From assembly GCF_017348835.2 (NCBI RefSeq), contig NZ_CP071375.1: a DNA stretch of 64,000 nucleotides. The stretch is one strand, 5' to 3'. The position numbers were made by a program, and so were the translations under genes. The notes beneath the pieces were generated by a model that ran no database searches, was not told the origin of the DNA, and was given only the letters and a program-made list of their open reading frames with translations. The DNA comes from Escherichia coli. GTDB lineage: Bacteria > Pseudomonadota > Gammaproteobacteria > Enterobacterales > Enterobacteriaceae. Shown piece after piece: positions 15,480 to 58,600 of this stretch. Numbering within the stretch: the stretch's first letter is position 1; each line of letters opens with the position of its first letter.

Positions 15480-16060
15480 CAGTTACCCAGCGTGGTGGAG
15501 ATGCGTGCAGGCGTTGCCGGAGTATCCGTTGTGGTCGACGTCTGTTCTTCGTCGGAACGAATATCCGCAGCACGGATGCTTGGCAGTTTACGAATCAGCT
15601 GTTCGGCAGCACGGTCGTACATCTCTTTTACGATCATGTCTTGTTCGTTATCTTTCGCTAACGCCATTTGCGGGTTATCAAAGAACGAACGGAAGACTTT
15701 GGCGCTAATCGGGTAGATATCACGGCCGGGGATCAACACGGTCGCATTCACCGTCATGATCATCTGATACTCTGCTGTTTGACCGTTACGGAATACCGAT
15801 GCGGTATCTTTCGCGATGCTCACTTTACCCAAACGCAGGGATGGAACGTCCTTACGCGTGGTTTCTTTATCAAGCAACTCGACACCATTCAGACGTAACT
15901 GGTTACGCACCGCACGGCTTAATGGCCCGTTCGGATCACCTGAGTCCAGGATCATGACCTTCATAGTGGAAGGAACCTGCGTGGTATCACGCAGATGCCA
16001 GCCACACCCGGCGGTGATTAACACCGCCAGAGATAACAACAATGTTGCCAGATATCGCAC
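15479..16060 (-). CDS. lptE: LPS assembly lipoprotein LptE
   Basis: 193 aa; lipobox (ITAGC); stop overlaps the holA start. Confidence 0.94.
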
Positions 16061-16074
16061 GCTTCCTCCCGCGC

Positions 16075-18657
16075 TTAGCCAACGACCAGATTGAGGAGTT
16101 TACCTGGTACGTAAATCACTTTACGTACAGTAACGCCATCAAGATATTTTGCTACCAGATGTTCCTGGCCAGCACGTTCGCGAACCTGTTCTTCCGTTGC
16201 GTCCACCGGAACGGTGATTTTGGCACGGACTTTACCGTTAACCTGCACCACGACCAGCGTGGAGTCTTCCACCATCGCTTTTTCGTCAGCAACCGGCCAC
16301 GGCGCGTTGTCGATATCGCCTTCGCCTTTCAGTTCCTGCCACAGCGTGAAGCAGATGTGCGGGGTGAACGGGTTAAGCATACGGACAACGGCCAGCAGCG
16401 CTTCCTGCATCAGAGCGCGATCCTGCTCGCCATCGGTTGGTGCTTTCGCCAGTTTGTTCATCAGCTCCATAATCGCCGCAATTGCGGTGTTGAAGGTCTG
16501 ACGACGGCCGATATCATCGGTCACTTTAGCGATCGTTTTATGCACATCGCGACGCAGCGCTTTCTGATCTTCAGTCAGCGCATCAACGTTCAGTGCCGCA
16601 ACATCACCTTTTGCTGTGTGCTCGTAAACCAGTTTCCAGACACGTTTCAGGAAGCGGTTAGCCCCTTCCACACCGGATTCCTGCCATTCGAGAGTCATAT
16701 CAGCCGGAGAAGCAAACATCATAAACAGACGAACGGTGTCCGCGCCGTAACGTTCAACCATCACCTGCGGGTCGATACCGTTGTTCTTCGACTTGGACAT
16801 TTTGCTCATGCCGGTATAAACCAGTTCATGGCCTGCCGCATCTTTCGCTTTCACGATACGGCCTTTCTCGTCACGTTCAACGATAGCATCAACCGGGGAA
16901 ACCCAGTTACGTTCGCCGTTTTCGCCAACATAGTAGAAGGCATCTGCCAGCACCATACCCTGACACAGCAACTGTTTCGCTGGTTCGTCAGAGTTCACCA
17001 TGCCTGCATCACGCATCAGTTTGTGGAAGAAGCGGAAGTAGAGCAGGTGCATAATGGCGTGTTCAATACCACCAATGTAGATATCCACCGGCAGCCAGTA
17101 GTTAGCCGCTTCGGAATCCAGCATCCCTTCTTTGTACTCTGGGCAAGTGTAGCGCGCATAGTACCAGGAGGACTCCATAAAGGTGTCGAAAGTGTCGGTT
17201 TCACGCAGCGCTGGCATACCGTTAACGGTAGTTTTTGCCCACTCCGGATCTGCTTTAATCGGGCTGGTAATGCCGTCCATCACCACATCTTCCGGCAGGA
17301 TCACCGGCAGCTGGTCGTCCGGGGTCGGCATTACGGTACCGTCTTCCAGCGTCACCATCGGAATCGGCGCGCCCCAGTAACGCTGACGAGAAACACCCCA
17401 GTCGCGCAGGCGGTAGTTCACTTTACGCTCGCCAACGCCCATCGCAGTCAGTTTATCTGCGATGGCGTTGAAGGCCGCTTCATGGTCAAGACCGTTGAAC
17501 TCGCCAGAGTTGAACAGCACGCCTTTTTCAGTCAGGGCTTGCTGAGAAAGATCTGGCTCAGAGCCGTCAGCCGCCAGGATAACCGGTTTGATGTTCAGGC
17601 CGTATTTAGAGGCAAACTCGTAGTCGCGTTGGTCGTGCCCCGGAACCGCCATTACTGCGCCCGTGCCGTACTCCATCAATACGAAGTTTGCTGCCCAAAC
17701 GGGAATTTCTTCGCCCGTTAATGGGTGAACCGCTTTAAAGCCAGTATCGACGCCTTTTTTCTCCATCGTCGCCATTTCAGCTTCGGCAACTTTGGTGTTA
17801 CGGCATTCGTCAATAAAGGCCGCCAGTTCAGGATTATTTTCCGCCGCTTTCTGCGCCAGCGGATGACCCGCAGCTACCGCCAGGTAGGTACAACCCATAA
17901 AGGTGTCCGGGCGGGTAGTGTAAACGGTCAGCGTGTTGTCATAGTCGTTAACGTTGAAGGTGATTTCCACGCCTTCGGAACGACCGATCCAGTTACGCTG
18001 CATGGTTTTAACGGTGTCTGGCCAGTGATCCAGTTTATCCAGATCGTTGAGCAGCTCGTCAGCGTAAGCGGTGATTTTGATAAACCACTGCGGGATCTCT
18101 TTACGTTCAACTTTGGTATCGCAGCGCCAGCAGCAGCCGTCGATAACTTGTTCGTTCGCTAGTACGGTCTGGTCGTTCGGGCACCAGTTGACCGCAGAAG
18201 TCTTCTTATATACCAGGCCTTTTTTATACAGCTCGGTGAAGAATTTCTGTTCCCAACGGTAGTATTCCGGCGTACAGGTTGCCAGCTCGCGGCTCCAGTC
18301 ATAACCAAAGCCCAGCATTTTGAGCTGGTTTTTCATATACGCGATGTTGTCGTACGTCCACGGTGCCGGTGCGGTGTTGTTTTTCACCGCCGCGCCTTCC
18401 GCAGGCAGACCAAAGGCGTCCCAGCCGATCGGCTGCAGGACGTTTTTGCCCAGCATACGCTGGTAGCGGGCGATCACGTCACCGATGGTGTAGTTACGTA
18501 CGTGGCCCATGTGTAGTCGACCAGAAGGATAGGGAAGCATAGACAGGCAGTAATACTTCTCTTTGCTCTCGTCTTCGGTTACTTCAAATGTGCGCTTCTC
18601 ATCCCAATGAAGCTGTACTTTGGATTCTATCTCTTCCGGGCGGTATTGCTCTTGCAT
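16075..18657 (-). CDS. leuS: Leucyl-tRNA synthetase
   Basis: Class I aaRS with HMGH and KMSKS motifs; start set to the internal ATG at 18657 ([11 protein letters not shown]..., 860 aa) rather than the ORF-track extension to 18798. Confidence 0.96.
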
Positions 18658-18891: not shown

Positions 18892-19374
18892 ATGAACAAG
18901 GTTGCTCAATATTACCGTGAACTGGTCGCGTCACTGAGCGAACGCCTGCGCAATGGCGAACGTGATATCGACGCACTGGTGGAACAGGCGCGCGAGCGCG
19001 TAATAAAAACAGGGGAGTTAACGCGAACCGAGGTCGATGAGCTGACGCGAGCTGTCAGACGTGACCTGGAAGAGTTCGCCATGAGCTATGAAGAGAGCCT
19101 GAAAGAAGAATCTGACAGCGTCTTTATGCGGGTGATTAAAGAAAGCTTGTGGCGGGAGCTGGCAGACATCACTGATAAAACGCAGCTTGAATGGCGCGAA
19201 GTTTTCCAGGACCTCAATCATCATGGGGTTTATCACAGCGGAGAAGTGGTCGGGCTGGGAAATCTGGTCTGCGAGAAATGTCACTTCCATCTCCCGATCT
19301 ACACACCGGAAGTGCTGACGCTATGCCCGAAATGTGGTCATGACCAGTTCCAGAGACGCCCGTTTGAGCCGTAA
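18892..19374 (+). CDS. ybeL: Uncharacterised protein YbeL (DUF1451, C-terminal Cys4 zinc ribbon)
   Basis: 160 aa; CxxC...CxxC at the C-terminus. Confidence 0.9.
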   Translation: MNKVAQYYRELVASLSERLRNGERDIDALVEQARERVIKTGELTRTEVDELTRAVRRDLEEFAMSYEESLKEESDSVFMRVIKESLWRELADITDKTQLEWREVFQDLNHHGVYHSGEVVGLGNLVCEKCHFHLPIYTPEVLTLCPKCGHDQFQRRPFEP

Positions 19375-19407
19375 TAGTCTGATTTCGCACAGCAATAAAG
19401 AGAATAT

Positions 19408-19439
19408 GGGCCGAATGAAATTCCCCGGCCCTTGTTTTT
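19408..19439. terminator. Rho-independent terminator between ybeL and ybeQ
   Basis: gggccg...cggccc stem followed by a T-run. Confidence 0.7.
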
Positions 19440-19443
19440 ATCT

Positions 19444-20427
19444 CTACAGTAAATCTTCAGTCTCACGAATTTCCTGACTGACATCTCTGGTTCCGGATGA
19501 CTGAACTTTACGATACAGGTCGAGAGCCTGTCGGAGATCGACAGGTCTTCCTTCTCCGTAGTGATACATAATGGCCAGGTTATACCAGGCAGTGGCGTCA
19601 TTGCATTCAGCGGCTTTTGTAAACCATTCAAAGGCAGCCTGATAATCTTTCTCAACGCCTTGTCCGTGTTTATACATATAACCGATGTTGACGTAAGCGC
19701 CGACGCTTTCCTGAGCGGCAGCCTTCAGATACCAGTACATCGCTTGCTTATAGTCCTGGTCCACCCCTTCGCCAGCGTTATAATCCCATGCAATTTGAAA
19801 CTGGACGTGCCGATTACCCTGCTGTGCGCTTTTCAAATACCAGAATGCGGCGAGTGTCTCGTTTTGAGCAACGCCTTTTCCGTCTTCATAAAGATCGGCC
19901 AGATTGTTTTGCGCGTCACTATGGCCTTGTAATGCAGCTTGTTTGTACCAGAAAAATGCCAGCGTATAGTCTTGTGCGACTCCGTTGCCATTTCTGTACA
20001 TCCACCCAAGATTATTTTGCGCATAAGACATTCCGCTCTCCGCGGCTATCTGATACCAGGCAACCGCTTCTTTATAGTTGGGGTCTTCTCCACGATCCAG
20101 TATCCAGCCAAGGGCGTTGGAAGCGAAAGTATGGCCTTGTAGGGCAGCTTTTTTCAGCCAGAAGATGGCTTGCTCATTATCTTTATGACGGCTTTTATCC
20201 TCGGTATACTTTTGCCCTAAGGAGTATTGTGCTTCACAATGACCTTGCTCAGCGGCCAGCTTCAGCCAGTAAAAGGCCTTTTCGTCGTCCGGAGAGTCAA
20301 TTGCGCTATCGCGATTATAATAAAACCCAACAATATATTGAGCCTCGCAATCGCTTTTTTCAGCACGTTCGATAATCTTATCTATTGATAAATTATCGCA
20401 GCAACTTGACGTAAAAATCATTATCAT
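19444..20427 (-). CDS. ybeQ: Sel1-repeat (TPR-like) protein YbeQ
   Basis: 327 aa with about seven tandem Sel1-like repeats (AQxxLGxxY...G); no obvious signal peptide. Confidence 0.88.
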   Translation of the reverse strand: MIMIFTSSCCDNLSIDKIIERAEKSDCEAQYIVGFYYNRDSAIDSPDDEKAFYWLKLAAEQGHCEAQYSLGQKYTEDKSRHKDNEQAIFWLKKAALQGHTFASNALGWILDRGEDPNYKEAVAWYQIAAESGMSYAQNNLGWMYRNGNGVAQDYTLAFFWYKQAALQGHSDAQNNLADLYEDGKGVAQNETLAAFWYLKSAQQGNRHVQFQIAWDYNAGEGVDQDYKQAMYWYLKAAAQESVGAYVNIGYMYKHGQGVEKDYQAAFEWFTKAAECNDATAWYNLAIMYHYGEGRPVDLRQALDLYRKVQSSGTRDVSQEIRETEDLL

Positions 20428-20550
20428 TTCCTTATGGTTGCAGATAAAACATATTATATTTTTATGTGTTCCGTTTTTGCGTAAGTCTTATTTTATGCGT
20501 ATTATGTTGTGTCAGAAAAGTATAAATAAATGAGCCTCGTAATGTAGTTT

Positions 20551-20569
20551 ACATTCACTAAATGAATGT
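20551..20569. promoter_or_regulatory. Inverted repeat acattca-N5-tgaatgt just upstream of the ybeR RBS
   Basis: Perfect 7-bp inverted repeat read directly from the sequence in the AT-rich ybeQ/ybeR divergent region. Confidence 0.35.
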
Positions 20570-20584
20570 TTAAGGATAAATTAT

Positions 20585-21292
20585 ATGGACATGGAGTCGC
20601 AAAAAATATTGTTTGCACTTTCCACTCCGATGGAAATACGCAATGAATGCTGTTTACCTTCGCATTCATCCCCCAAAATGTATTTAGGTACATGCTTTTT
20701 TGACCTTTCTTCCTCCTGGGGAATTGATGACCGTGATGACCTGCTGCGCACAATTCACCGAATGATCGATAACGGTCATGCCGCTCGGTTGGCAGGGTTT
20801 TATCACCGCTGGTTTCGTTATTCTCCATGTGAATGGCGTGACTATCTTGCTGAATTAAATGAGCAAGGTCAGGCTTATGCGCAATTTGTCGCCAGCACAG
20901 CCGAATGCTGTGGTGAGGGGGGAATCAAAGCCTGGGATTATGTCCGGATGGGTTTTTTAAGCCGAATGGGCGTACTTAATAACTGGTTGAGTGAAGAAGA
21001 AAGTCTATGGATCCAGTCGCGCATTCATCTACGGGCTCTACGTTATTATAGTAACTGGCGGCAATACTTTGCCGGTTATACCTTTGGTCGGCAATATTGG
21101 CAGTCTCCCGAAGATGATCATCTGCAGTTATTACGCGAAATCTTAGCGCGTAAAGAATACGACGATTCCGGCAATGATATGTTTTATCAATTATTTGCCA
21201 GTGATGATGCGTATTACCCTACCTTGTCCTGGCAACCATTGGCTTACTATTCTGCATGCCCGGAAACGCTTAAGGATATGAGCGACCTATGA
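20585..21292 (+). CDS. ybeR: DUF1266-family protein YbeR
   Basis: 235 aa; paralogue of YbeU (23382..24089) with shared blocks ([18 protein letters not shown]); stop overlaps the djlB start (ATGA). Confidence 0.88.
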
Positions 21293-22716
21293 AAAATTGC
21301 TGGAAGATTCTCGAAATAGAGGAAACGACTGACGTCGATATTATCCGCCGCGCTTATCTGGCGCTGTTACCGTCCTTTCATCCAGAAACCGATCCGCAGG
21401 GTTTTAAACAACTTCGTCAGGCGTATGAGGAGGCGCTACGGATTGCGCAGTCGCCTGCTAAATCTGTTTGGCAACCAGAAGAATATGAGGTAGCAGAACA
21501 TGAAATTCTGCTCGCCTTTCGTGCGTTACTTGCCTCTGATAGCGAACGTTTTCTGCCCTCCGCCTGGCAGCGATTCATTCAGCAATTAAATTATTGCTCG
21601 ATGGAAGAGATTGATGAATTACGCTGGTCGCTGTGCACAATCGCCATGAACACTGCCCATTTATCCTTCGAGTGCGTGGTGTTATTAGCAGAAAGATTGC
21701 GGTGGTTGCAGGAGGAAAACGTCGGGGAAATAGACGAAGAAGAACTGGAATCCTTTTTATATGCCATTGCGAAGGGGAATGTTTTTAACTTCCAGACCAT
21801 TCTGCATCTGCCCGTTGCCGTGCAAAATGACACCATCGATTTTTACCAAATGTTCGCTCGGATTTGGTCATCGTATCCAGAATGGCTGACATTGTATTTA
21901 GCGCAACATCGCGCAGTGATTATCCCCGATGATGCAAAACTGCACAGAAATTTACTCCGCTGGTATAGCGCAGGTCGCCTGGGAATTCCCGAACTCCTGG
22001 ATTACGCCCGGTCGTGGCGGGAAGCTGAATCTGATAATGAAGATGCGCGTTATTATGAATACGCACAACGCGTCTATTGTGGAGAAGGCGAAAGCTTGCT
22101 GGCAGAACTTTGTGACTACTGGCGCGAGTATCCCTCCACCCAGGCGGATGCTTTAATATTGCAATGGTGCCGTCAGCATCGGGTCGATTATTACCCGTTA
22201 GTGGTGATGATGATTGAAGCTCGTGAACTGGTTAACGATCAGGGAAAACCGCTACTTTATATCCCCGGCGACAGCGCCCGTACGCGTTTTCATTTATACG
22301 AAATACTCAGCGATGAAAAACTCTCTGCGCTGGGGCGTTCTCTGGTCGAGATGGTTTTGCACAAAGGACGTAAGCCGCGGATCTCACTCACGCGTGATAC
22401 AGAACATCCCTTATGGCCATTATATTTAGTTGCCAAACAATTAGTGCAGGCCAGCCAACCGACAGAAGAATCATTAATGCCGATTGTGAGCCGCCTTGAT
22501 GCGGAAGATCGTTGTCCACTGGAAGCATTAATTATTCGTCGATTATTAATTCAGGCGGCGAATTTTACCGAGAAGCAAACTGTTGAACCGGAGCCGCAAC
22601 CGCAGCCAATGCCCGTTGACGATGGTGGGCCAGGCTGTCTGGGCATCATTAAAATTATTTTCTATATTTTTATCTTTGCTGGTTTGATAGGGAAAATACT
22701 CCATCTGTTCGGGTGA
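21289..22716 (+). CDS. djlB: J-domain co-chaperone DjlB (HPE variant, C-terminal membrane anchor)
   Basis: 475 aa; N-terminal J-like domain ([33 protein letters not shown]); C-terminal hydrophobic tail ([21 protein letters not shown]). Confidence 0.88.
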
Positions 22717-22725
22717 CAGTCGACG

Positions 22726-23280
22726 TTAATGTGCGGGAAGCCCGGCAAGTAATCTTTCCGCATTTTTGTAATGTTGTTTGGCGGCCAGTTTTAACCATTT
22801 TTGAGATTCATAATGGTTAACATTAATACCTGAGCCATTTCTGTAGATCAAACCTAAAGTATATTGAGCATGAGCATACCCTTGTTCAGCTGCTTCCTTA
22901 TACCAGAGAATTGCTTTACGGGTGTCGGGTTTGACCCCCAGACCTTTGAGGTAGATCCACCCCAGTTTACTTTGCGCGCGTGGATTTTCCTGTTCCGCTG
23001 ATTGCTCATACCAGTATCTCGCCTGTATATAATCCAGTGGTTTACCGTCGCTACCATGAAGATAAAATTCTCCAAGGCGATATTGCGATGTTGAGTGACC
23101 ATGAATCGCGGAAAGCTCCGTGGCTGCCGTGGTGAATGGAAGACTGCCCGGTGAGCTTAAATAATCAAAGGCATAATTCACCATGGCTTTATCACGCAAC
23201 GTTGTTTTCTTGGGTTGGCTAATACAGGTAATTGCTGCAACTATAAAAATTGCGAATATATACATTAATTTTTTATTCAT
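22726..23280 (-). CDS. ybeT: Sel1-repeat protein YbeT with N-terminal signal/anchor sequence
   Basis: 184 aa; hydrophobic N-terminus ([19 protein letters not shown]) followed by Sel1 repeats. Confidence 0.88.
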
Positions 23281-23381
23281 ATGTGAATACTTCGATTTTC
23301 TTTTTATTTTGAAAGCGTCAAGTTTATACTCATCAATAATAAAAAAGTAGTCAGTTAATGCACTTAAGGGATTATTAACAA

Positions 23382-24089
23382 ATGAATAAGGAAGAACAAT
23401 ATCTTCTTTTTGCGCTTTCTGCGCCGATGGAAATACTTAATCAGGGTTGCAAACCCGCGCATGACTCGCCAAAAATGTATACTGGGATAAAAGAATTCGA
23501 TCTCTCATCATCCTGGGGAATAAATAATCGTGATGATTTAATTCAGACTATTTATCAGATGACTGATGATGGTCATGCCAATGATTTAGCTGGCTTATAT
23601 CTGACATGGCATCGCTCTTCCCCTGAAGAGTGGAAAGCATTAATTGCTGGCGGCTCGGAGAGAGGATTGATTTATACCCAATTCGTTGCGCAAACCGCTA
23701 TATGCTGTGGGGAAGGGGGAATCAAAGCCTGGGATTATGTGCGGATGGGGTTTTTGTCGCGGGTTGGTGTACTCAACAAGTGGCTGACGGAAGAAGAGAG
23801 TTTATGGCTGCAATCGCGCGTTTATGTACGAGCTCACCATTACTATCACAGCTGGATGCACTATTTTTCCGCCTATTCGTTAGGGCGTCTCTACTGGCAA
23901 TCTTCTCAGTGCGAAGACAACGCTTCGCTACGCGAGGCGCTAACCCTGTACAAATACGATAGCGCCGGGAGTCGGATGTTCGAAGAGCTGGCAGCGGGAA
24001 GCGACCGTTTCTATGCCACGCTTCCCTGGCAGCCATTAACTGTCCAGCCTGAATGCCCGGTAACGCTTAAGGATGTGAGCAACCTATGA
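23382..24089 (+). CDS. ybeU: DUF1266-family protein YbeU
   Basis: 235 aa; paralogue of YbeR; stop overlaps the djlC start (ATGA). Confidence 0.88.
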
Positions 24090-25537
24090 AAACATGTTGG
24101 CAAATCCTCGAAATTGAAAGCACGACGCAAATAGACATTATCCGCCAGGCTTATCTTGCTCGCTTACCGTTATGTCATCCCGAAACCGATCCGCAAGGGT
24201 TTAAAGCATTACGCCAGGCCTATGAAGAGGCCCTGCGACTGGCGGTAAATCCTGTCGAGGAAGCAGATGATGAAGAAAAAGATGATGCCACTGAGCATGA
24301 AATACTACGTGTATTCAGGGCATTACTGGATTCAGAAAGTGATCGTTTTCAGCCCTCCGCCTGGCAGAAATTTATTCAGCAATTAAATACCTGGAACATG
24401 GAGGATGTCGATCAATTACGCTGGCCGCTGTGTGCAATCGCTATAGAAGCGCGATATCTTTCATTAAATTGTGCTTCTTTGCTGGCAGAGCGTTTGAACT
24501 GGCATTCGTTTAATGACAGCGAAGGAATAGATGAGGAAGAAAGGGAGGCTTTTCTTGAGGCCATTCAGGCTGGTGATTGTTTCGATTTCCTTGGCCTTCT
24601 GGAATATCCCGTTGCGTTGCAGAACCAGACTGTTGAATATTACTTCGCGCTGGAACGTTGCTGCCATTACCATCCTGACTATGTCACTGCGTTTTTGGCG
24701 ATGGAAGGTCCGTGGTTCATTCCTGATGATGCAAAGTTACATCGCAAACTGTTGCGCTGGTACAGCTCGGTGCAAACAGGTATGGCGGAACTCATTCCTG
24801 TTGCCCAACAGTGGCAAACGGAAGAACCAGAAAGCGAAGATGCCCAGTATTACCAGTGTACACAACGTTTGTACTGCGGCGAGGGGGAAAGCCTGCTTGC
24901 CGATCTCTGCGCGTACTGGGGAAGTTACCCATCTACACAAGCCGATAATTTGTTGTTGCAGTGGAGCGCACAACATTGCCCGGATTATTTCGCGTTATTA
25001 GTGATGGTTATCGAAGCGCGGAGCATGGTAGATGCGCAAGGTAAACCGTTGAAATATGTTCCTGGTGAGAGCGCCCGGACGCGTCTGTTATGGGCGGAAA
25101 TTTTACATAGCGGAAAACTATCGCCGTTAGGTCAATCGTTTATTGAGTCGTTATTCTTCAAACGCAAAGCATGGGCGTGGTGGAAATCGAGAGTCGGTAG
25201 CGAGACAGAGCAAGATTCACCGTTACTGGATTTGTATCGGGTAGCGGAACAGGTAGTACTTGAAGCGTTTCCGAAACAAGAGATGCTGGCCCGTCTTAAT
25301 ACAAGGCTGGAAGGTGGAGATGCTCATCCATTAGAGGCCATTATCACCCGGATGCTGTTGACGAAAGTGAAACTCGAGCCGGAGGATGAAGATGTCGATG
25401 AGCCAACACCTGAAAACCATGAAGAAAAAAATGATGAGGATGAAAAACCACAGAGCATTACCAGCATTATCAAAATCAGCTTAACGGTGCTGGTGATAGG
25501 TTATGCTCTCGGCAAAATCGCGATGTTGTTTAGTTGA
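24086..25537 (+). CDS. djlC: J-domain co-chaperone DjlC (HPE variant, C-terminal membrane anchor)
   Basis: 483 aa; N-terminal J-like domain (...[13 protein letters not shown]), acidic linker and C-terminal hydrophobic tail ([22 protein letters not shown]). Confidence 0.88.
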
Positions 25538-25554
25538 CGATGTGTTTTTTGCGC

Positions 25555-25590
25555 CGATGCCGGATGCAGCATTTACGCCGCATCCGGCAG
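25555..25590. repeat. REP palindromic unit between convergent djlC and hscC
   Basis: gccggatgc...gcatccggc palindrome. Confidence 0.65.
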
Positions 25591-25596
25591 CCGTGA

Positions 25597-27267
25597 TTAT
25601 GGGATCTCAATGGCTAAATAAACGCTCGCCCGCCGCCTGACCTCATCGACGCGGGCCATATCGTTTGACTGCAACGCCGCATCAAAATCGGTGATCACCC
25701 GGCCAATCTCTTCTCGCTCGTCACCCAGCGCCCGCGCCCACAACTCTTCCAGTTTGGCTTTAAAGGTACGATTGATGAGCATATCGCGCGGATAAATTTT
25801 CAATGCGGATAACCGCGTCCGACTCTCTTCAATCTGCTGCGCGCTCAATGTTACCGGGCTGTGGTTAATCACTCTGGACTTAATGCTGCCGTCTTCCAGA
25901 AGCACGTCAACTTCAAGCAAACCGTTGATATCATAACTAAAGCGAATATCAATCGACTGATAAGCCCCGGTTTTCTTCAACGGCACATCGAAGGATTCCA
26001 CCAGAATGTTGTTTTTAACTTTGTGGTTTTCTCCCTGATAGACGTTAACCGTAATTGAATCCTGTTCCGGGTGCATGGTTGAATAAGTTTCTACACGCGA
26101 CACGGGCACAGTGGTGTTTCGTTCAATAATCGGCGAGAAAATGCCGGAAACGCCCTGACGGTTAACCTCAACGCCCAACGAGTAAGGGCAAATATCAGTG
26201 AGGATCACTTCTTCAATATCTTCACTGCGTAAGCGGCAGGCAGCCTGGATTGCTGCGCCCAGCGCTACAATGGTGCTCGGATCGTAACTTTGATACGGTA
26301 ATTTGCCAAACAGACGCACGGCGATTCGCTGCACCAGCGGCATTTGTGACGCGCCGCCAACCAGCACCAGACTGTCGATTTGACTCGGCTTCAGACGCGC
26401 ATCGCGCAACGCCTGTTCAATCGGCACTCGCAAGCGATTGAGCAGCGGCAACCACAAATCTTCCAGTTCGTTCTCGTAAAATTCGCATTCCCGCGTTTCA
26501 TCCTGGTACTGCCAGCGAATGTGCATTGGCGATTGATTGCTACATTTTGCCGCTTCCACACAGGCGTACAAGGCTGCCAGTTCACTCTCGTTAAGCGTGG
26601 TCCTGGCGACATCCGCGCGCTTTAAAACGTCATCGACCAACATATGGGTAAAATCTTCGCCACCGAGGAAGTTATCGCCAGCGGAGGCGTGAACTTCAAT
26701 CACCGGCGTGGCGTACTCAAGCACCGTGACGTCAAACGTGCCGCCACCGAGATCAAACACTAGCGAACGGGTATTTTGTTGGGTATGCAGGCCATACGCC
26801 ATCGCAGCTGCTGTGGGTTCATTAATTAAGCGTACCGCATTTAACCCGGCTAACTCCGCTGCTAAACGGGTATGCTTGCGTTGTTCATCGCTGAAATAAG
26901 CCGGAACAGAGATCACCACATCTTTAATCGGACGTTGCAGAAATTCTTCGGCATCTTCTTTTAATGAGCGCAATACCAAAGAGGACAGTTCTGGCGCGTT
27001 AAATGTGTCGCTGCCTAACCGCCAGTTGGTATTACTGCCCATTGCACGTTTAAATAACGCTGCCGTTTTATCCGGATGCGAAGTACGCCGTGATACAGCC
27101 GGTTTTCCGACTAAAATATGATTATTTTCATCCATGCTAATTATGGATGGTGTTAAATATTCACCGAACTTATTTGGAATTAATTGCGCGGCACCGTCTT
27201 TCCAGACGGCAATTAAACTATTGGTAGTACCGAGATCGATACCAATGGCGAGTTCTGCATTATCCAT
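25597..27267 (-). CDS. hscC: Specialised Hsp70-family chaperone HscC
   Basis: 556 aa; Hsp70 ATPase signatures (IGIDLGTTNS, DLGGGTFD); shorter than DnaK. Confidence 0.95.
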   Translation of the reverse strand: MDNAELAIGIDLGTTNSLIAVWKDGAAQLIPNKFGEYLTPSIISMDENNHILVGKPAVSRRTSHPDKTAALFKRAMGSNTNWRLGSDTFNAPELSSLVLRSLKEDAEEFLQRPIKDVVISVPAYFSDEQRKHTRLAAELAGLNAVRLINEPTAAAMAYGLHTQQNTRSLVFDLGGGTFDVTVLEYATPVIEVHASAGDNFLGGEDFTHMLVDDVLKRADVARTTLNESELAALYACVEAAKCSNQSPMHIRWQYQDETRECEFYENELEDLWLPLLNRLRVPIEQALRDARLKPSQIDSLVLVGGASQMPLVQRIAVRLFGKLPYQSYDPSTIVALGAAIQAACRLRSEDIEEVILTDICPYSLGVEVNRQGVSGIFSPIIERNTTVPVSRVETYSTMHPEQDSITVNVYQGENHKVKNNILVESFDVPLKKTGAYQSIDIRFSYDINGLLEVDVLLEDGSIKSRVINHSPVTLSAQQIEESRTRLSALKIYPRDMLINRTFKAKLEELWARALGDEREEIGRVITDFDAALQSNDMARVDEVRRRASVYLAIEIP

Positions 27268-27350
27268 TGCATTTATATCTTGAAAGAAAAAGAGATAAAC
27301 AGATTAAGACCACCCAGGTAACGCGTGGTGATCTTAATCAATGACGTGTG

Positions 27351-28286
27351 TTAAGCGTAAAATTTCAGACGATCGGCCAGTAAATCAACAAAGCCCTGAC
27401 GATCAACATCGACCATTACAGTGGCATTCGGTTTATTGCCAGTCAGATAATAATAATCAACAACCGTCATCCCCTGGGTATATTTCCCCTGTGTTTCCAC
27501 GCCAACCCAGCGCTCAACAGTGGTAAACAACTCGGGTTTCAACAGCCAGGCGATGGTGCATGGGTCATGCAGCGGTGCGCCGACAAAGCCCCATTTTTCG
27601 TCTTTATGATATTCGAGGAAGAAATCCAGCAGTTCGGCAACAATGGTTGAAACAGGGTTGCCAATCGCGCGGAAACGCTCAGTGTCTTCAACGTGGATTT
27701 GTGCTTTGTGAGTAACATCCAGACCTGCCATCACCACCGGGATCCCTGACTGGAAGACAATTTCTGCCGCTTCCGGGTCAACGTAAATATTAAATTCAGC
27801 CGCAGGCGTCCAGTTACCAAGCCCCATTGCGCCGCCCATAATCACGATACGGGCAATTTTGCTATGCAGTTCCGGATGGCTATTGAGCAGCAAGGCAACG
27901 TTAGTTTGCGGTCCGGTAGAAACAATGGTGACAGGTTCCGCACTTTCACGCAGCGTTTTCGCCATTAGCTCTACCGCCGTACAGTTTTGCGGTGCGAACG
28001 CCGGTTCCGGTAATGCCGGGCCGTCGAGACCGCTTTCGCCGTGCACATTGTCCGCGATAATCAACTCACGCATTAACGGTTTTACCGCGCCGCCTGCTAC
28101 CGGAATATCGGTGCGATTAAGCAAGGTCAGCATACGCAGAACATTGCGTAAGGTTTTTTCTGGTGTCTGGTTTCCGGCGGAAGACGTAATTGCTTTGACA
28201 TCAAGCTCTGGTGAGGCGAGGGCGAGAACTATTGCGATAGCGTCGTCATGACCTGGGTCGCAATCTAACAGAATTGGCAGTGCCAT
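27351..28286 (-). CDS. rihA: Pyrimidine-specific ribonucleoside hydrolase RihA
   Basis: DCDPGHDD nucleoside-hydrolase motif; start set at the internal ATG ([15 protein letters not shown], 311 aa). Confidence 0.92.
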
Positions 28287-30554: not shown

Positions 30555-30717
30555 AGAAAAAAGAGGGTAGCAGCGTTAACTGCTACCCTCGAAGATTGTT
30601 ACCCAGCGTATTGCGGTTTTCAGGCCCGATGGGGAACGACCATCAGGCGTATAGTCTGTCCGTGCTACGTAACAATCGAGAGGGCTAGAATTTCCGCCCC
30701 TGGTTCTTGTAATTAGT
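30555..30717 (-). ncRNA. sroC: SroC sRNA, processed from the gltI-gltJ spacer (GcvB sponge)
   Basis: Position between gltI and gltJ with an intrinsic terminator at its 3' end; boundaries placed from remembered K-12 layout, not computed. Confidence 0.55.
30556..30592 (-). terminator. Rho-independent terminator/attenuator after gltI (3' end of sroC)
   Basis: Minus-strand hairpin gagggtagcag..ctgctaccctc followed by a U6 run (A6 on + at 30556-30561). Confidence 0.8.
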
Positions 30718-39104: not shown

Positions 39105-39179
39105 TGGCTGGGGTACGAGGATTCGAACCTCGGAATGCCGGAATCAGAATCCGGTGCCTTACCGCTTGGCGATACCCCA
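39105..39179 (-). tRNA. glnX: tRNA-Gln (anticodon CUG)
   Basis: 75 nt; reverse complement reads UGGGGUAUCGCCAAGCGG...CCAGCCA; anticodon loop read by eye. Confidence 0.9.
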
Positions 39180-39216
39180 ACTGGGTGCACTTACAAGGTA
39201 AGCGTCTTGAATAAAT

Positions 39217-39291
39217 TGGCTGGGGTACGAGGATTCGAACCTCGGAATGCCGGAATCAGAATCCGGTGCCTTACCGCTTGGCGATACCCCA
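39217..39291 (-). tRNA. glnV: tRNA-Gln (anticodon CUG)
   Basis: Identical copy of the 39105..39179 gene. Confidence 0.9.
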
Positions 39292-39339
39292 ACAAATTGG
39301 TTTTTGAATTTGCCGAACATATTCGACACATTCAGAATT

Positions 39340-39416
39340 TGGTGGCTACGACGGGATTCGAACCTGTGACCCCATCATTATGAGTGATGTGCTCTAACCA
39401 ACTGAGCTACGTAGCC
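39340..39416 (-). tRNA. metU: Elongator tRNA-Met (anticodon CAU)
   Basis: 77 nt; GGCUACGUAGCUCAGUUGG...CCACCA; anticodon CAU. Confidence 0.9.
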
Positions 39417-39431
39417 AGATTGTTTCTTCGA

Positions 39432-39506
39432 TGGCTGGGGTACCTGGATTCGAACCAGGGAATGCCGGTATCAAAAACCGGTGCCTTACCGCTTGGCGAT
39501 ACCCCA
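39432..39506 (-). tRNA. glnW: tRNA-Gln (anticodon UUG)
   Basis: 75 nt; same scaffold as glnX but anticodon loop UUUUGAU. Confidence 0.9.
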
Positions 39507-39540
39507 ATAACCGGGCGGTGAACCGCTTACTCGAAGAAGA

Positions 39541-39615
39541 TGGCTGGGGTACCTGGATTCGAACCAGGGAATGCCGGTATCAAAAACCGGTGCCTTACCG
39601 CTTGGCGATACCCCA
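39541..39615 (-). tRNA. glnU: tRNA-Gln (anticodon UUG)
   Basis: Identical copy of the 39432..39506 gene. Confidence 0.9.
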
Positions 39616-39638
39616 TCCGTACAACGCTTTCTGGTGAA

Positions 39639-39723
39639 TGGTGCGGGAGGCGAGACTTGAACTCGCACACCTTGCGGCGCCAGAACCTAAATCTGGTGCG
39701 TCTACCAATTTCGCCACTCCCGC
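39639..39723 (-). tRNA. leuW: tRNA-Leu (anticodon UAG), long variable arm
   Basis: 85 nt; GCGGGAGUGGCGAAAUUGG...CCCGCACCA. Confidence 0.9.
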
Positions 39724-39731
39724 AAAAAAGA

Positions 39732-39808
39732 TGGTGGCTACGACGGGATTCGAACCTGTGACCCCATCATTATGAGTGATGTGCTCTAACCAACTGAGCT
39801 ACGTAGCC
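39732..39808 (-). tRNA. metT: Elongator tRNA-Met (anticodon CAU)
   Basis: 77 nt; identical copy of the 39340..39416 gene; first gene of the operon. Confidence 0.9.
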
Positions 39809-42098: not shown

Positions 42099-42198
42099 TG
42101 CCGGATGCGGCGTGAACGCCTTATTCGGCCTACAAAAGCATGAAAATTCAATAAATTGCAGGAGCTGCGTAGGCCTGATAAGCGTAGCGCATCAGGCA
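42099..42198. repeat. REP/BIME cluster between asnB and umpH
   Basis: tgccggatgcggcgtgaacgccttattcggcctac and gtaggcctgataagcgtagcgcatcaggca palindromic units. Confidence 0.7.
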
Positions 42199-57919: not shown

Positions 57920-58600
57920 CAAATGCGCCTATAAGGCTCTCTTACCAGCCGCGCCCTAACAGGCGCACACGATCTGACATTTGCATCCAACTTCGTTACT
58001 TACGGCCCGTAAACGGGCTGCCCGGATAGGGAATCGATAACTGCTCTACCATTTTATCCTCTTCAAGCTGGTGCTTTATGTAATCCTGTATCTTCGCCGT
58101 GTTCTTACCCACTGTATCGACGTAGTACCCTCTGCACCAGAACTCCCTGTTCCTGTATTTGAATTTCAAATCACCAAACTGCTCGTAAAGCATCAGACTG
58201 CTTTTCCCTTCCAGATATCCCATAAAGCCGGATACGCTCATTTTGGGCGGGATCTCCACAAGCATATGGATATGATCTGCACAGCATTCAGCTTCCAGAA
58301 TCCGTACACTTTTCCACTCACACAGCTTTCTCAAAATACTGCCTATTGCTCTACGCTTCTCTCTGTAGAACACCTGTCTTCGATATTTTGGCGCAAAAAC
58401 TATGTGATATTTACAGTTCCATCGGGTGTGCGCTAAGCTCTTTTCGTTCCCCATTGGGACCCCCTTTTGATTTCTTGTTTGACACTTGCAGTTGCCAGAC
58501 CGCAAGGTGTTTTAACAAATCAAAAGGGGTTTTAATAACTGGCTCAAAGCTGAAAGCTTTCCGGAACCCCCAGCCTAGCTGGGGGTTTTCTGTGCACAAG
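57900..58600 (-). mobile_element. IS200-family insertion sequence (IS200/IS605 family), boundaries approximate
   Basis: Contains an IS200-type Y1 transposase gene; the 5' side has a perfect hairpin (58566-58588) and a long-range inverted repeat (58461-58471 / 58527-58537) around the tnpA RBS; size is about 0.7 kb. Confidence 0.6.
57996..58454 (-). CDS. tnpA: IS200-type Y1 (HUH) transposase TnpA
   Basis: 152 aa from MGNEKSLAHTRWNCKYHIVFAPKYRR...; HUH motif HIHMLV and catalytic Tyr region; closely resembles Salmonella IS200 TnpA by recall. Confidence 0.85.
   Translation of the reverse strand: MGNEKSLAHTRWNCKYHIVFAPKYRRQVFYREKRRAIGSILRKLCEWKSVRILEAECCADHIHMLVEIPPKMSVSGFMGYLEGKSSLMLYEQFGDLKFKYRNREFWCRGYYVDTVGKNTAKIQDYIKHQLEEDKMVEQLSIPYPGSPFTGRK

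Follow-up and report, generated by a model that had tools for sequence, protein, structure and literature searches.

Introduction

The third Hsp70 of Escherichia coli, HscC, became known in the late 1990s. Here we analyze the locus that encodes it, the ybeQ–hscC block at positions 19444–27267 of a 64,000-nucleotide stretch of the E. coli contig NZ_CP071375.1 (hereafter, the window). The block comprises genes for two Sel1-repeat proteins (YbeQ, YbeT), two proteins of the DUF1266 family (YbeR, YbeU), two J-proteins (DjlB, DjlC), and HscC. The surrounding 8.1-kb stretch, 19300–27400, matches E. coli PE164 at 100% identity and K-12 at 97.8%, where RefSeq names the matching genes ybeQ, ybeR, djlB, ybeT, ybeU, djlC, and hscC; the system encoded here is the same as the described HscC–DjlC/DjlB (Hsc62–Hsc56) system.

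The locus, the pairing of HscC with DjlB and DjlC, the HPE variant of the J-domain motif, and the tail anchoring of both J-proteins have been published, and the adjacency of the J-protein and Hsp70 genes was noted as early as 1999. According to a 2021 review, the HscC ATPase is stimulated by DjlC only, with no stimulation from DnaJ, CbpA, or HscB; DjlB is assumed to stimulate HscC like DjlC; both J-proteins are tail-anchored, with insertion into the plasma membrane shown for DjlC; deletion of hscC and of djlB djlC causes Cd2+ sensitivity, and HscC also confers ultraviolet (UV) resistance. A review describes the HscC subfamily as devoid of GrpE-interaction features and as having specific deletions and insertions in the nucleotide- and substrate-binding domains, and HscC presumably works without GrpE. 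We rely on this literature for the DjlC data, both on ATPase stimulation and on membrane insertion, as well as for the Cd2+ and UV phenotypes.

Two other bacterial systems are close enough to be compared. HscA–HscB–IscU likewise combines a specialized Hsp70 with an exclusive, co-encoded class C J-protein and a narrow client set, but HscB is soluble and delivers the known client IscU, whereas DjlB and DjlC are membrane-anchored, contain a TPR-like solenoid, and are paired with a DUF1266 protein. In CbpA–CbpM, a small protein from the same operon as the J-protein is specific for that J-protein; however, the position of cbpM is downstream of cbpA, and the Hsp70 partner of CbpA is DnaK, while the DUF1266 gene lies upstream of its J-protein gene with a 4-nt overlap. 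The similarity to TPR-containing J-proteins and docking receptors (DNAJC7/TPR2, DNAJC3/p58IPK, TOM70, Sti1/Hop) is at the fold level only, with 9–14% identity.

The HscC system as published is a two-component Hsp70/J-protein system, in which the DUF1266 genes are not discussed. Unlike in that picture, we find the DUF1266 gene to be as conserved a neighbor as the J-protein gene, so that the conserved unit is DUF1266 + J-protein + HscC. We consider it reasonably probable (about 60%) that the products of the locus form an Hsp70 machine of three components on the cytoplasmic side of the inner membrane, with the DUF1266 protein as the partner of the J-protein. The status of DUF1266 as a conserved third component with a fold lacking a solved relative appears to be new, as do the TPR-like solenoid of the Djl proteins, the accessory position of the Sel1 genes, and the population picture described below.

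Conservation of the Triad

The locus was scanned for in one genome per species, with an alignment of eight DUF1266 sequences as the query. All open reading frames (ORFs) of the 50 loci returned were translated and searched with the seven E. coli proteins. In all 50 loci a DUF1266 gene is followed by a J-protein gene on the same strand, and in 47 of them the next gene is a convergent hscC. The full E. coli arrangement is seen in three Escherichia species of the scan. In Salmonella and Citrobacter the order is ybeL, ybeQ(−), two consecutive DUF1266–J pairs, hscC(−), with no ybeT, and identity matrices place the origin of both pairs before the Escherichia–Salmonella split. The locus of Klebsiella spallanzanii is reduced to ybeL, one DUF1266–J pair, and hscC, without a Sel1 gene. 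In each of the 44 Pseudomonas species, DUF1266 precedes a J-protein of about 900 amino acids (aa), again with no Sel1 gene at the locus, and a convergent hscC is present in 43 of them; in the remaining one (L050) the locus ends inside the J-protein gene.

The flanks of the Pseudomonas loci differ: in the fluorescens group they contain dusC with GGDEF-EAL/LysR genes, in the putida group rdgC with genes for assimilatory nitrate and nitrite reductase; since there are at least two unrelated contexts in this genus, the triad behaves as a self-contained cassette. Divergent ORFs upstream of the Pseudomonas DUF1266 gene (families F5 and F8) were considered as possible further members and rejected, as they look like shadow ORFs of high-GC DNA, the real neighbor being dusC-like.

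Far more distant DUF1266 proteins (profile E-values 1e-22 to 1e-28), from genome and metagenome contigs, also adjoin a J-protein and an Hsp70 of 555–559 aa. One distant type has the rearranged order Hsp70, J-protein, DUF1266 on one strand, giving two gene orders overall, and on one contig (L064) the order J-protein, DUF1266 is repeated.

The coupling of the first two genes is equally regular. In all 52 DUF1266–J pairs of the scan an in-frame J-protein start precedes the end of the DUF1266 gene by exactly 4 nt, and with these starts the N-termini align; independent public gene calls show the same overlap. In the window, the stop and start codons overlap as ATGA in both ybeR/djlB and ybeU/djlC. 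The co-conservation with hscC that the first-pass annotation of this DNA had expected for all partners extends far beyond E. coli for the DUF1266 and J-protein genes, and fails for the Sel1 genes.

Several individual loci deserve mention. In Leminorella grimontii (L008:10001–13422), the only complete locus with a non-contiguous triad, DUF1266 and a 903-aa J-protein are followed by 7 kb with no Hsp70 gene. Megaplasmids of Erwinia persicina (L061:7974–13066) carry a decaying triad, with the DUF1266 gene intact, hscC in fragments, and the long J-protein gene broken into four ORFs, the last of which is annotated as DUF805. In Escherichia sp. MOD1-EC7003 the interval from ybeL to ybeQ holds an additional insert (L003:3648–5986), consisting of a third HPE-type tail-anchored J-protein gene, split into ORFs of 93 and 344 aa and with no DUF1266 gene upstream, and a gene for a 321-aa protein with a signal-peptide-like N-terminus. 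Finally, the end stretch of a contig labeled Paenibacillus sp. USDA918EY (L007:8093–10388) is 98% identical to E. coli ybeU, and more likely reflects contamination or chimeric assembly than a copy in a Firmicute.

Organization of the E. coli Locus

The ORFs of the window confirm the gene order proposed earlier, ybeQ(−), ybeR–djlB(+), ybeT(−), ybeU–djlC(+), hscC(−), exactly at 19444–27267. The features are as follows.

19375..27350, no strand: variable block, from the ybeL stop to the rihA stop; fills the whole ybeL–rihA intergenic space
19444–20427, minus strand: ybeQ, Sel1-repeat protein, 327 aa, probably cytoplasmic
20428..20584, no strand: AT-rich divergent ybeQ/ybeR spacer, 157 bp, 26.8% GC
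20585–21292, plus strand: ybeR, DUF1266 protein of module 1, 235 aa, 59% identical to YbeU
21289–22716, plus strand: djlB, tail-anchored HPE-type J-protein of module 1, 475 aa, 50% identical to DjlC
22726–23280, minus strand: ybeT, small Sel1-repeat protein, 184 aa, three repeats, N-terminal hydrophobic segment
23281..23381, no strand: AT-rich divergent ybeT/ybeU spacer, 101 bp, 25.7% GC
23382–24089, plus strand: ybeU, DUF1266 protein of module 2, 235 aa
24086–25537, plus strand: djlC, J-protein of module 2, HPE-type and tail-anchored, cytosolic solenoid TPR-like, 483 aa
25538..25596, no strand: convergent djlC/hscC spacer with a GC-rich palindrome, 59.3% GC (sequence read directly)
25597–27267, minus strand: hscC, specialized Hsp70, 556 aa

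The two modules are indeed paralogous, YbeR and YbeU being 59% identical over 235 aa (E-value 7e-104), and DjlB and DjlC, 50% identical over 483 alignment columns (E-value 2e-161). Each DUF1266–J pair faces a Sel1 gene across a short AT-rich spacer (157 and 101 bp, about 26% GC), as had been noticed at first reading. A simple scan for sigma-70 promoters and terminators found a strong promoter in neither spacer, and fewer sites than in shuffled sequence. The GC content of the block is 46.6%, compared to about 52% in the flanks and 50.3% in the window. The palindrome between djlC and hscC is repetitive extragenic palindromic (REP)-like and likely a terminator.

J-Proteins DjlB and DjlC

The J-proteins of this family carry HPE instead of the canonical HPD tripeptide (57 out of 59 proteins), HPE being regarded in the literature as the one tolerated replacement. 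The Pfam DnaJ match of DjlC is weak (E-value 0.036, residues 4–47). By hydropathy, a single transmembrane segment is located at the C-terminus, at residues 446–464 of 475 in DjlB and 457–475 of 483 in DjlC, with none elsewhere and no signal peptide, as in tail-anchored membrane proteins. C-terminal transmembrane segments were found in 10 out of 11 representative J-proteins scanned, the exception being a soluble type (L058). The early suggestion of a membrane-tethered Hsp70 system is supported; for DjlC, membrane insertion has been published.

In fold comparison, the solenoid of DjlC resembles the TPR scaffolds of TOM70, SRP72, PEX5, and Sti1 and can be classified as TPR-fold, although no Pfam TPR model scores significantly on the E. 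coli protein. The first 400–430 residues of the long Pseudomonas and Leminorella J-proteins are collinear with almost the whole cytosolic part of DjlB and DjlC, and are followed by about 400 additional residues and a multi-pass anchor, the part named DUF805 by RefSeq on the broken Erwinia copy. Given this relation, DjlB and DjlC of E. coli are shortened forms of the long J-protein.

DUF1266 Proteins and Their Predicted Complex With J-Proteins

The profile and structure searches that had been suggested for YbeU gave a family but not a solved relative. Among Pfam models YbeU matches only DUF1266 (PF06889; E-value 1.4e-44, residues 41–216), a family with 1443 cluster representatives at E ≤ 1e-3, and comparison of the fold with solved structures found no relative. 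A full-text literature search for DUF1266 turned up only unrelated transcriptome work on an hns mutant of enteroaggregative E. coli (EAEC) 042, and the link of DUF1266 to the HscC system appears to be undescribed in the searchable literature.

To assess binding, the structure of a YbeU–(GGGGS)6–DjlC fusion was predicted from a 39-row alignment (17 paired and 22 DUF1266-only rows). Over 748 residues the mean predicted local distance difference test (pLDDT) was 87.3 and the predicted template modeling score (pTM) 0.79; little else than the linker and two acidic loops fell below pLDDT 50. By our own estimate, pTM would reach about 0.8 with the 235 residues of DUF1266 placed against the solenoid, and at most about 0.6 with their position undefined; as the observed value exceeds the latter, the model, a covalently linked fusion with no predicted aligned error (PAE) and no negative control, suggests that YbeU and DjlC form a defined complex.

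Natural fusions of DUF1266 to a Djl-type solenoid, which could have served as Rosetta-stone proteins, were also looked for. Hidden Markov models of the Djl solenoid, applied to 264 collected proteins including 42 long multi-domain DUF1266 proteins, matched only an E. coli chimera. Two AlphaFold Database entries contain a YbeU part at 95–97% identity: A0A2X3M2D5, a 627-aa E. coli “Hsc56 co-chaperone,” and A0A077ZGN2, a 932-aa “DnaJ-like” protein filed under the nematode Trichuris trichiura. Frameshift fusion of ybeU–djlC and bacterial contamination probably account for them, so that they do not count as natural fusions.

HscC

HscC is shorter than DnaK, as stated in the first-pass annotation, with 556 aa against about 640 aa in DnaK-type Hsp70s. 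The DnaK and HscA models match it at E-values of about 1e-113 to 1e-115 (residues 7–482), but the scores of 377–385 bits are below the curated cut-offs of 620–822. Hence it has the Hsp70 architecture while being neither DnaK nor HscA, in agreement with its RefSeq name, and its length, as well as that of the orthologs found here (555–563 aa), falls in the 550–580 aa range of the HscC subfamily. The C-termini were inspected for an EEVD-like motif and none was accepted, the tails being conserved within clades only and not EEVD-like. In the block, hscC is the most conserved gene, with 83% identity to Salmonella and a ratio of nonsynonymous to synonymous substitution rates (dN/dS) of 0.03.

Sel1-Repeat Proteins

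Pfam detects eight Sel1 repeats in YbeQ and three in YbeT, and the two proteins align at the level of these repeats only (31% identity). YbeT has an N-terminal hydrophobic segment (residues 2–20), suggesting export or a membrane anchor; since YbeQ has none, the two proteins probably differ in location. Orthologs of ybeQ occupy the same position in Salmonella and Citrobacter and are absent from the Klebsiella and Pseudomonas loci, while ybeT is confined to Escherichia loci. As the triad loci of Klebsiella spallanzanii, of the 44 Pseudomonas species, and of the more distant contigs have no adjoining Sel1 gene, these genes do not belong to the core; by their distribution they are later lineage-specific additions, with ybeT restricted to Escherichia and ybeQ shared by this genus, Salmonella, and Citrobacter. 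The earlier proposal of dedicated adaptors is supported for DUF1266 as a dedicated partner, which is co-conserved with the J-protein and HscC and is present or absent together with them in E. coli, and is not supported for the Sel1 proteins.

In a published transposon-directed insertion-site sequencing (TraDIS) experiment, ybeT was among the five most significant hits under challenge with phage Arnold, whereas infection of the Keio ybeT knockout by this phage was as in the wild type. The TraDIS signal of ybeT (22726–23280) is thus at odds with the behavior of the knockout.

Population Distribution, Selection, and Regulation

Presence of the block was assessed in 5426 complete E. coli genomes, with the following counts.

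hscC: 4376/5426 genomes at ≥80% coverage; 4409 with any match
ybeU–djlC: 4268/5426 genomes at ≥80% coverage; 4402 with any match
ybeR–djlB: 3707/5426 genomes at ≥80% coverage; 4407 with any match
Whole block: 3691/5426 genomes at ≥80% coverage; any-match count not comparable, as the query includes the flanks

The nearly equal any-match counts (4409, 4407, and 4402) mean that the three parts are present or absent together. The block is missing from about 19% of the genomes, and in about 13% more module 1 is lost or chimeric between the paralogs; many truncated DUF1266 variants are in circulation. In one block-free genome the empty site is clean, ybeL and rihA being 44 bp apart with a palindrome in the spacer. 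This REP-like palindrome (L002:6076–6119) resembles the GC-rich palindrome at 25545–25590 of the window.

Intact genes of the block evolve under purifying selection: comparison of E. coli with E. whittamii gives a dN/dS of 0.03 for hscC and of 0.07–0.14 for the remaining six. In the comparison of E. coli with Salmonella, protein identity is 83% for HscC, 62–64% for DUF1266 proteins, 48–56% for J-proteins, and 50% for YbeQ, as against 91–95% for the flanking genes.

The block is silenced by H-NS. The H-NS regulon as listed includes both ybeT and ybeU–djlC, and the expression of both goes up when SlyA is overexpressed. In EAEC 042, an unassigned DUF1266 gene shows 308-fold de-repression at 25°C when hns is mutated.

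A Proposed Three-Component Membrane Hsp70 Machine

Taken together, these data can be accommodated in the following scheme. Observations of this study are the triad and its 4-nt overlap, the folds and membrane anchors of the proteins, and the patterns of selection and population distribution, whereas the binding of DUF1266 to the J-protein, what DUF1266 does, and what kind of clients are served are inferred. [quoted passage not shown] YbeR and YbeU, encoded directly upstream of their own J-proteins, would be made by coupled translation, and the solenoid of the cognate J-protein is the most likely binding site of each, which would create an adaptor complex on the cytoplasmic side of the membrane. 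This complex may recruit HscC-ATP and trigger hydrolysis, upon which HscC would clamp the client, with the DUF1266 protein either selecting the client or gating the J-domain. Duplication of the DUF1266–J pair in Enterobacteria would have yielded two fast-evolving adaptors serving one conserved HscC, with ybeQ and ybeT added later and standing outside the core. The block as a whole is silenced by H-NS, counter-silenced by SlyA, and dispensable in the laboratory.

Several observations weigh against this interpretation. Leminorella has DUF1266 and the J-protein without an adjacent HscC, and in one Escherichia lineage a third J-protein gene has no DUF1266 partner. DUF1266 is not restricted to Hsp70 systems either, as it is also part of long proteins that contain TPR, Cu-amine-oxidase-N, SLH, or LRR domains; a Djl-type solenoid was detectable in none of these. 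The support for DUF1266–J binding comes from the linked fusion model, with the limits given above. HscC, DjlB, and DjlC are below proteomic detection in growing cells (2021 review), and the block is absent from about 19% of E. coli genomes, with truncated or chimeric copies in many strains.

The unit to purify, reconstitute, and delete is the triad, the DUF1266–J pair being the likely seat of specificity, and the Sel1 genes can be dropped as core components. From Enterobacteria through Pseudomonas to more distant loci, DUF1266 is coupled to the J-protein at the level of translation, and this changes the experimental question. It also provides a first functional context for a domain family of about 1,400 cluster representatives without a solved structural relative.

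Alternative Interpretations

The DUF1266 protein could instead be a regulator of the chaperone cycle, either a CbpM-like inhibitor of the J-domain or a dedicated nucleotide-exchange factor of HscC. CbpA–CbpM is a precedent, the GrpE-interaction features are absent from HscC according to the literature, and the predicted compact YbeU–DjlC arrangement is compatible with such a function; however, the DUF1266 fold has no similarity to any known Hsp70 exchange factor (GrpE, BAG, HspBP1, Hsp110), which speaks against the second form. We regard this explanation as possible but doubtful.

The reading of the E. coli block as a silenced, decaying remnant that has no role today seems rather unlikely. The protein levels below detection in growing cells, the 308-fold de-repression of a DUF1266 gene in an hns mutant, the loss of the block or of module 1 in a considerable share of genomes, the many truncated variants, and the broken triad of the Erwinia plasmid all fit this view, but purifying selection acts on all seven genes (dN/dS 0.03–0.14), the triad is retained across Gammaproteobacteria, and deletion phenotypes have been published.

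A further-reaching reading would make DUF1266 a new class of subunit of Hsp70 systems, with a fold absent from all solved structures, in obligate complex with TPR-like membrane J-proteins of the HPE type and sensing foreign or damaged membrane-proximal proteins, with the HscC triad as a surveillance or conflict module and not a housekeeping chaperone. The rapid divergence, the duplication, the H-NS silencing, and the presence/absence pattern would then reflect this sensing role. In our opinion the reading is speculative and rather improbable.

The first-pass annotation had taken the three-gene module of Sel1, DUF1266, and J-protein as the duplicated functional unit, with Sel1 proteins as dedicated HscC adaptors. 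The facing of each E. coli pair by a Sel1 gene, the conserved position of ybeQ in Salmonella and Citrobacter, and the common response of ybeT and ybeU–djlC to SlyA and H-NS agree with it. However, Salmonella and Citrobacter have a single Sel1 gene beside two DUF1266–J pairs, so that what was duplicated is the pair; no Sel1 gene is found in Klebsiella, Pseudomonas, or distant loci; and YbeQ and YbeT resemble each other at the repeat level only and differ in the hydrophobic N-terminus. As an evolutionary statement this reading is largely refuted by the comparison of loci, and as a functional one it is very unlikely.

A relation to stress or phage had also been surmised. The link to stress has its basis in the published Cd2+ and UV phenotypes. 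In a reading related to phage, the block would be a conflict system (anti-phage, anti-plasmid, or toxin-related) with the Hsp70 as its output and the DUF1266–J pairs as sensors. The variable presence within E. coli, the low GC content and strong H-NS silencing, the diversified paralogs, the fast-evolving adaptors (48–64% identity between E. coli and Salmonella versus 91–95% in the flanks), and the significant TraDIS hit of ybeT would be expected of such a system. Nevertheless, PADLOC has no match for DUF1266, the J-proteins, or HscC, and its marginal PtuA hits to the Sel1 proteins (E-value about 4e-3) are repeat-level, with no domain passing. No DUF1266 or J-protein family exists in PHROGs, and two “phage” records are fragments of 1.5–2.6 kb without annotation rather than real phage copies. 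Most E. coli “plasmid” matches are records of 0.28 to 4.9 Mb, with two of 113 and 174 kb, and among plasmids only those of Erwinia persicina carry a copy, a decaying one. Since, in addition, the locus is syntenic between housekeeping genes across Enterobacteriaceae, lacks a nuclease, pore, or NADase-type effector, has dN/dS of about 0.1 and not above 1, gives no phage phenotype in the ybeT knockout, and is linked to phage defense through HscC by no paper found in the literature search, we discard its identity as a defense system, and any conflict function is highly improbable.

Other Features of the Window

Rfam models identify several RNA elements outside the block: a cspA-type thermoregulator leader at 972–1420, the sroC small RNA at 30555–30717, downstream of gltI/gltJ, seven clustered tRNA genes at 39108–39808, ES036 at 42134–42176, and STnc490 at 58464–58587. 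A 559-aa ORF antisense inside leuS (16042–17721) is almost certainly a shadow ORF of this highly expressed gene.

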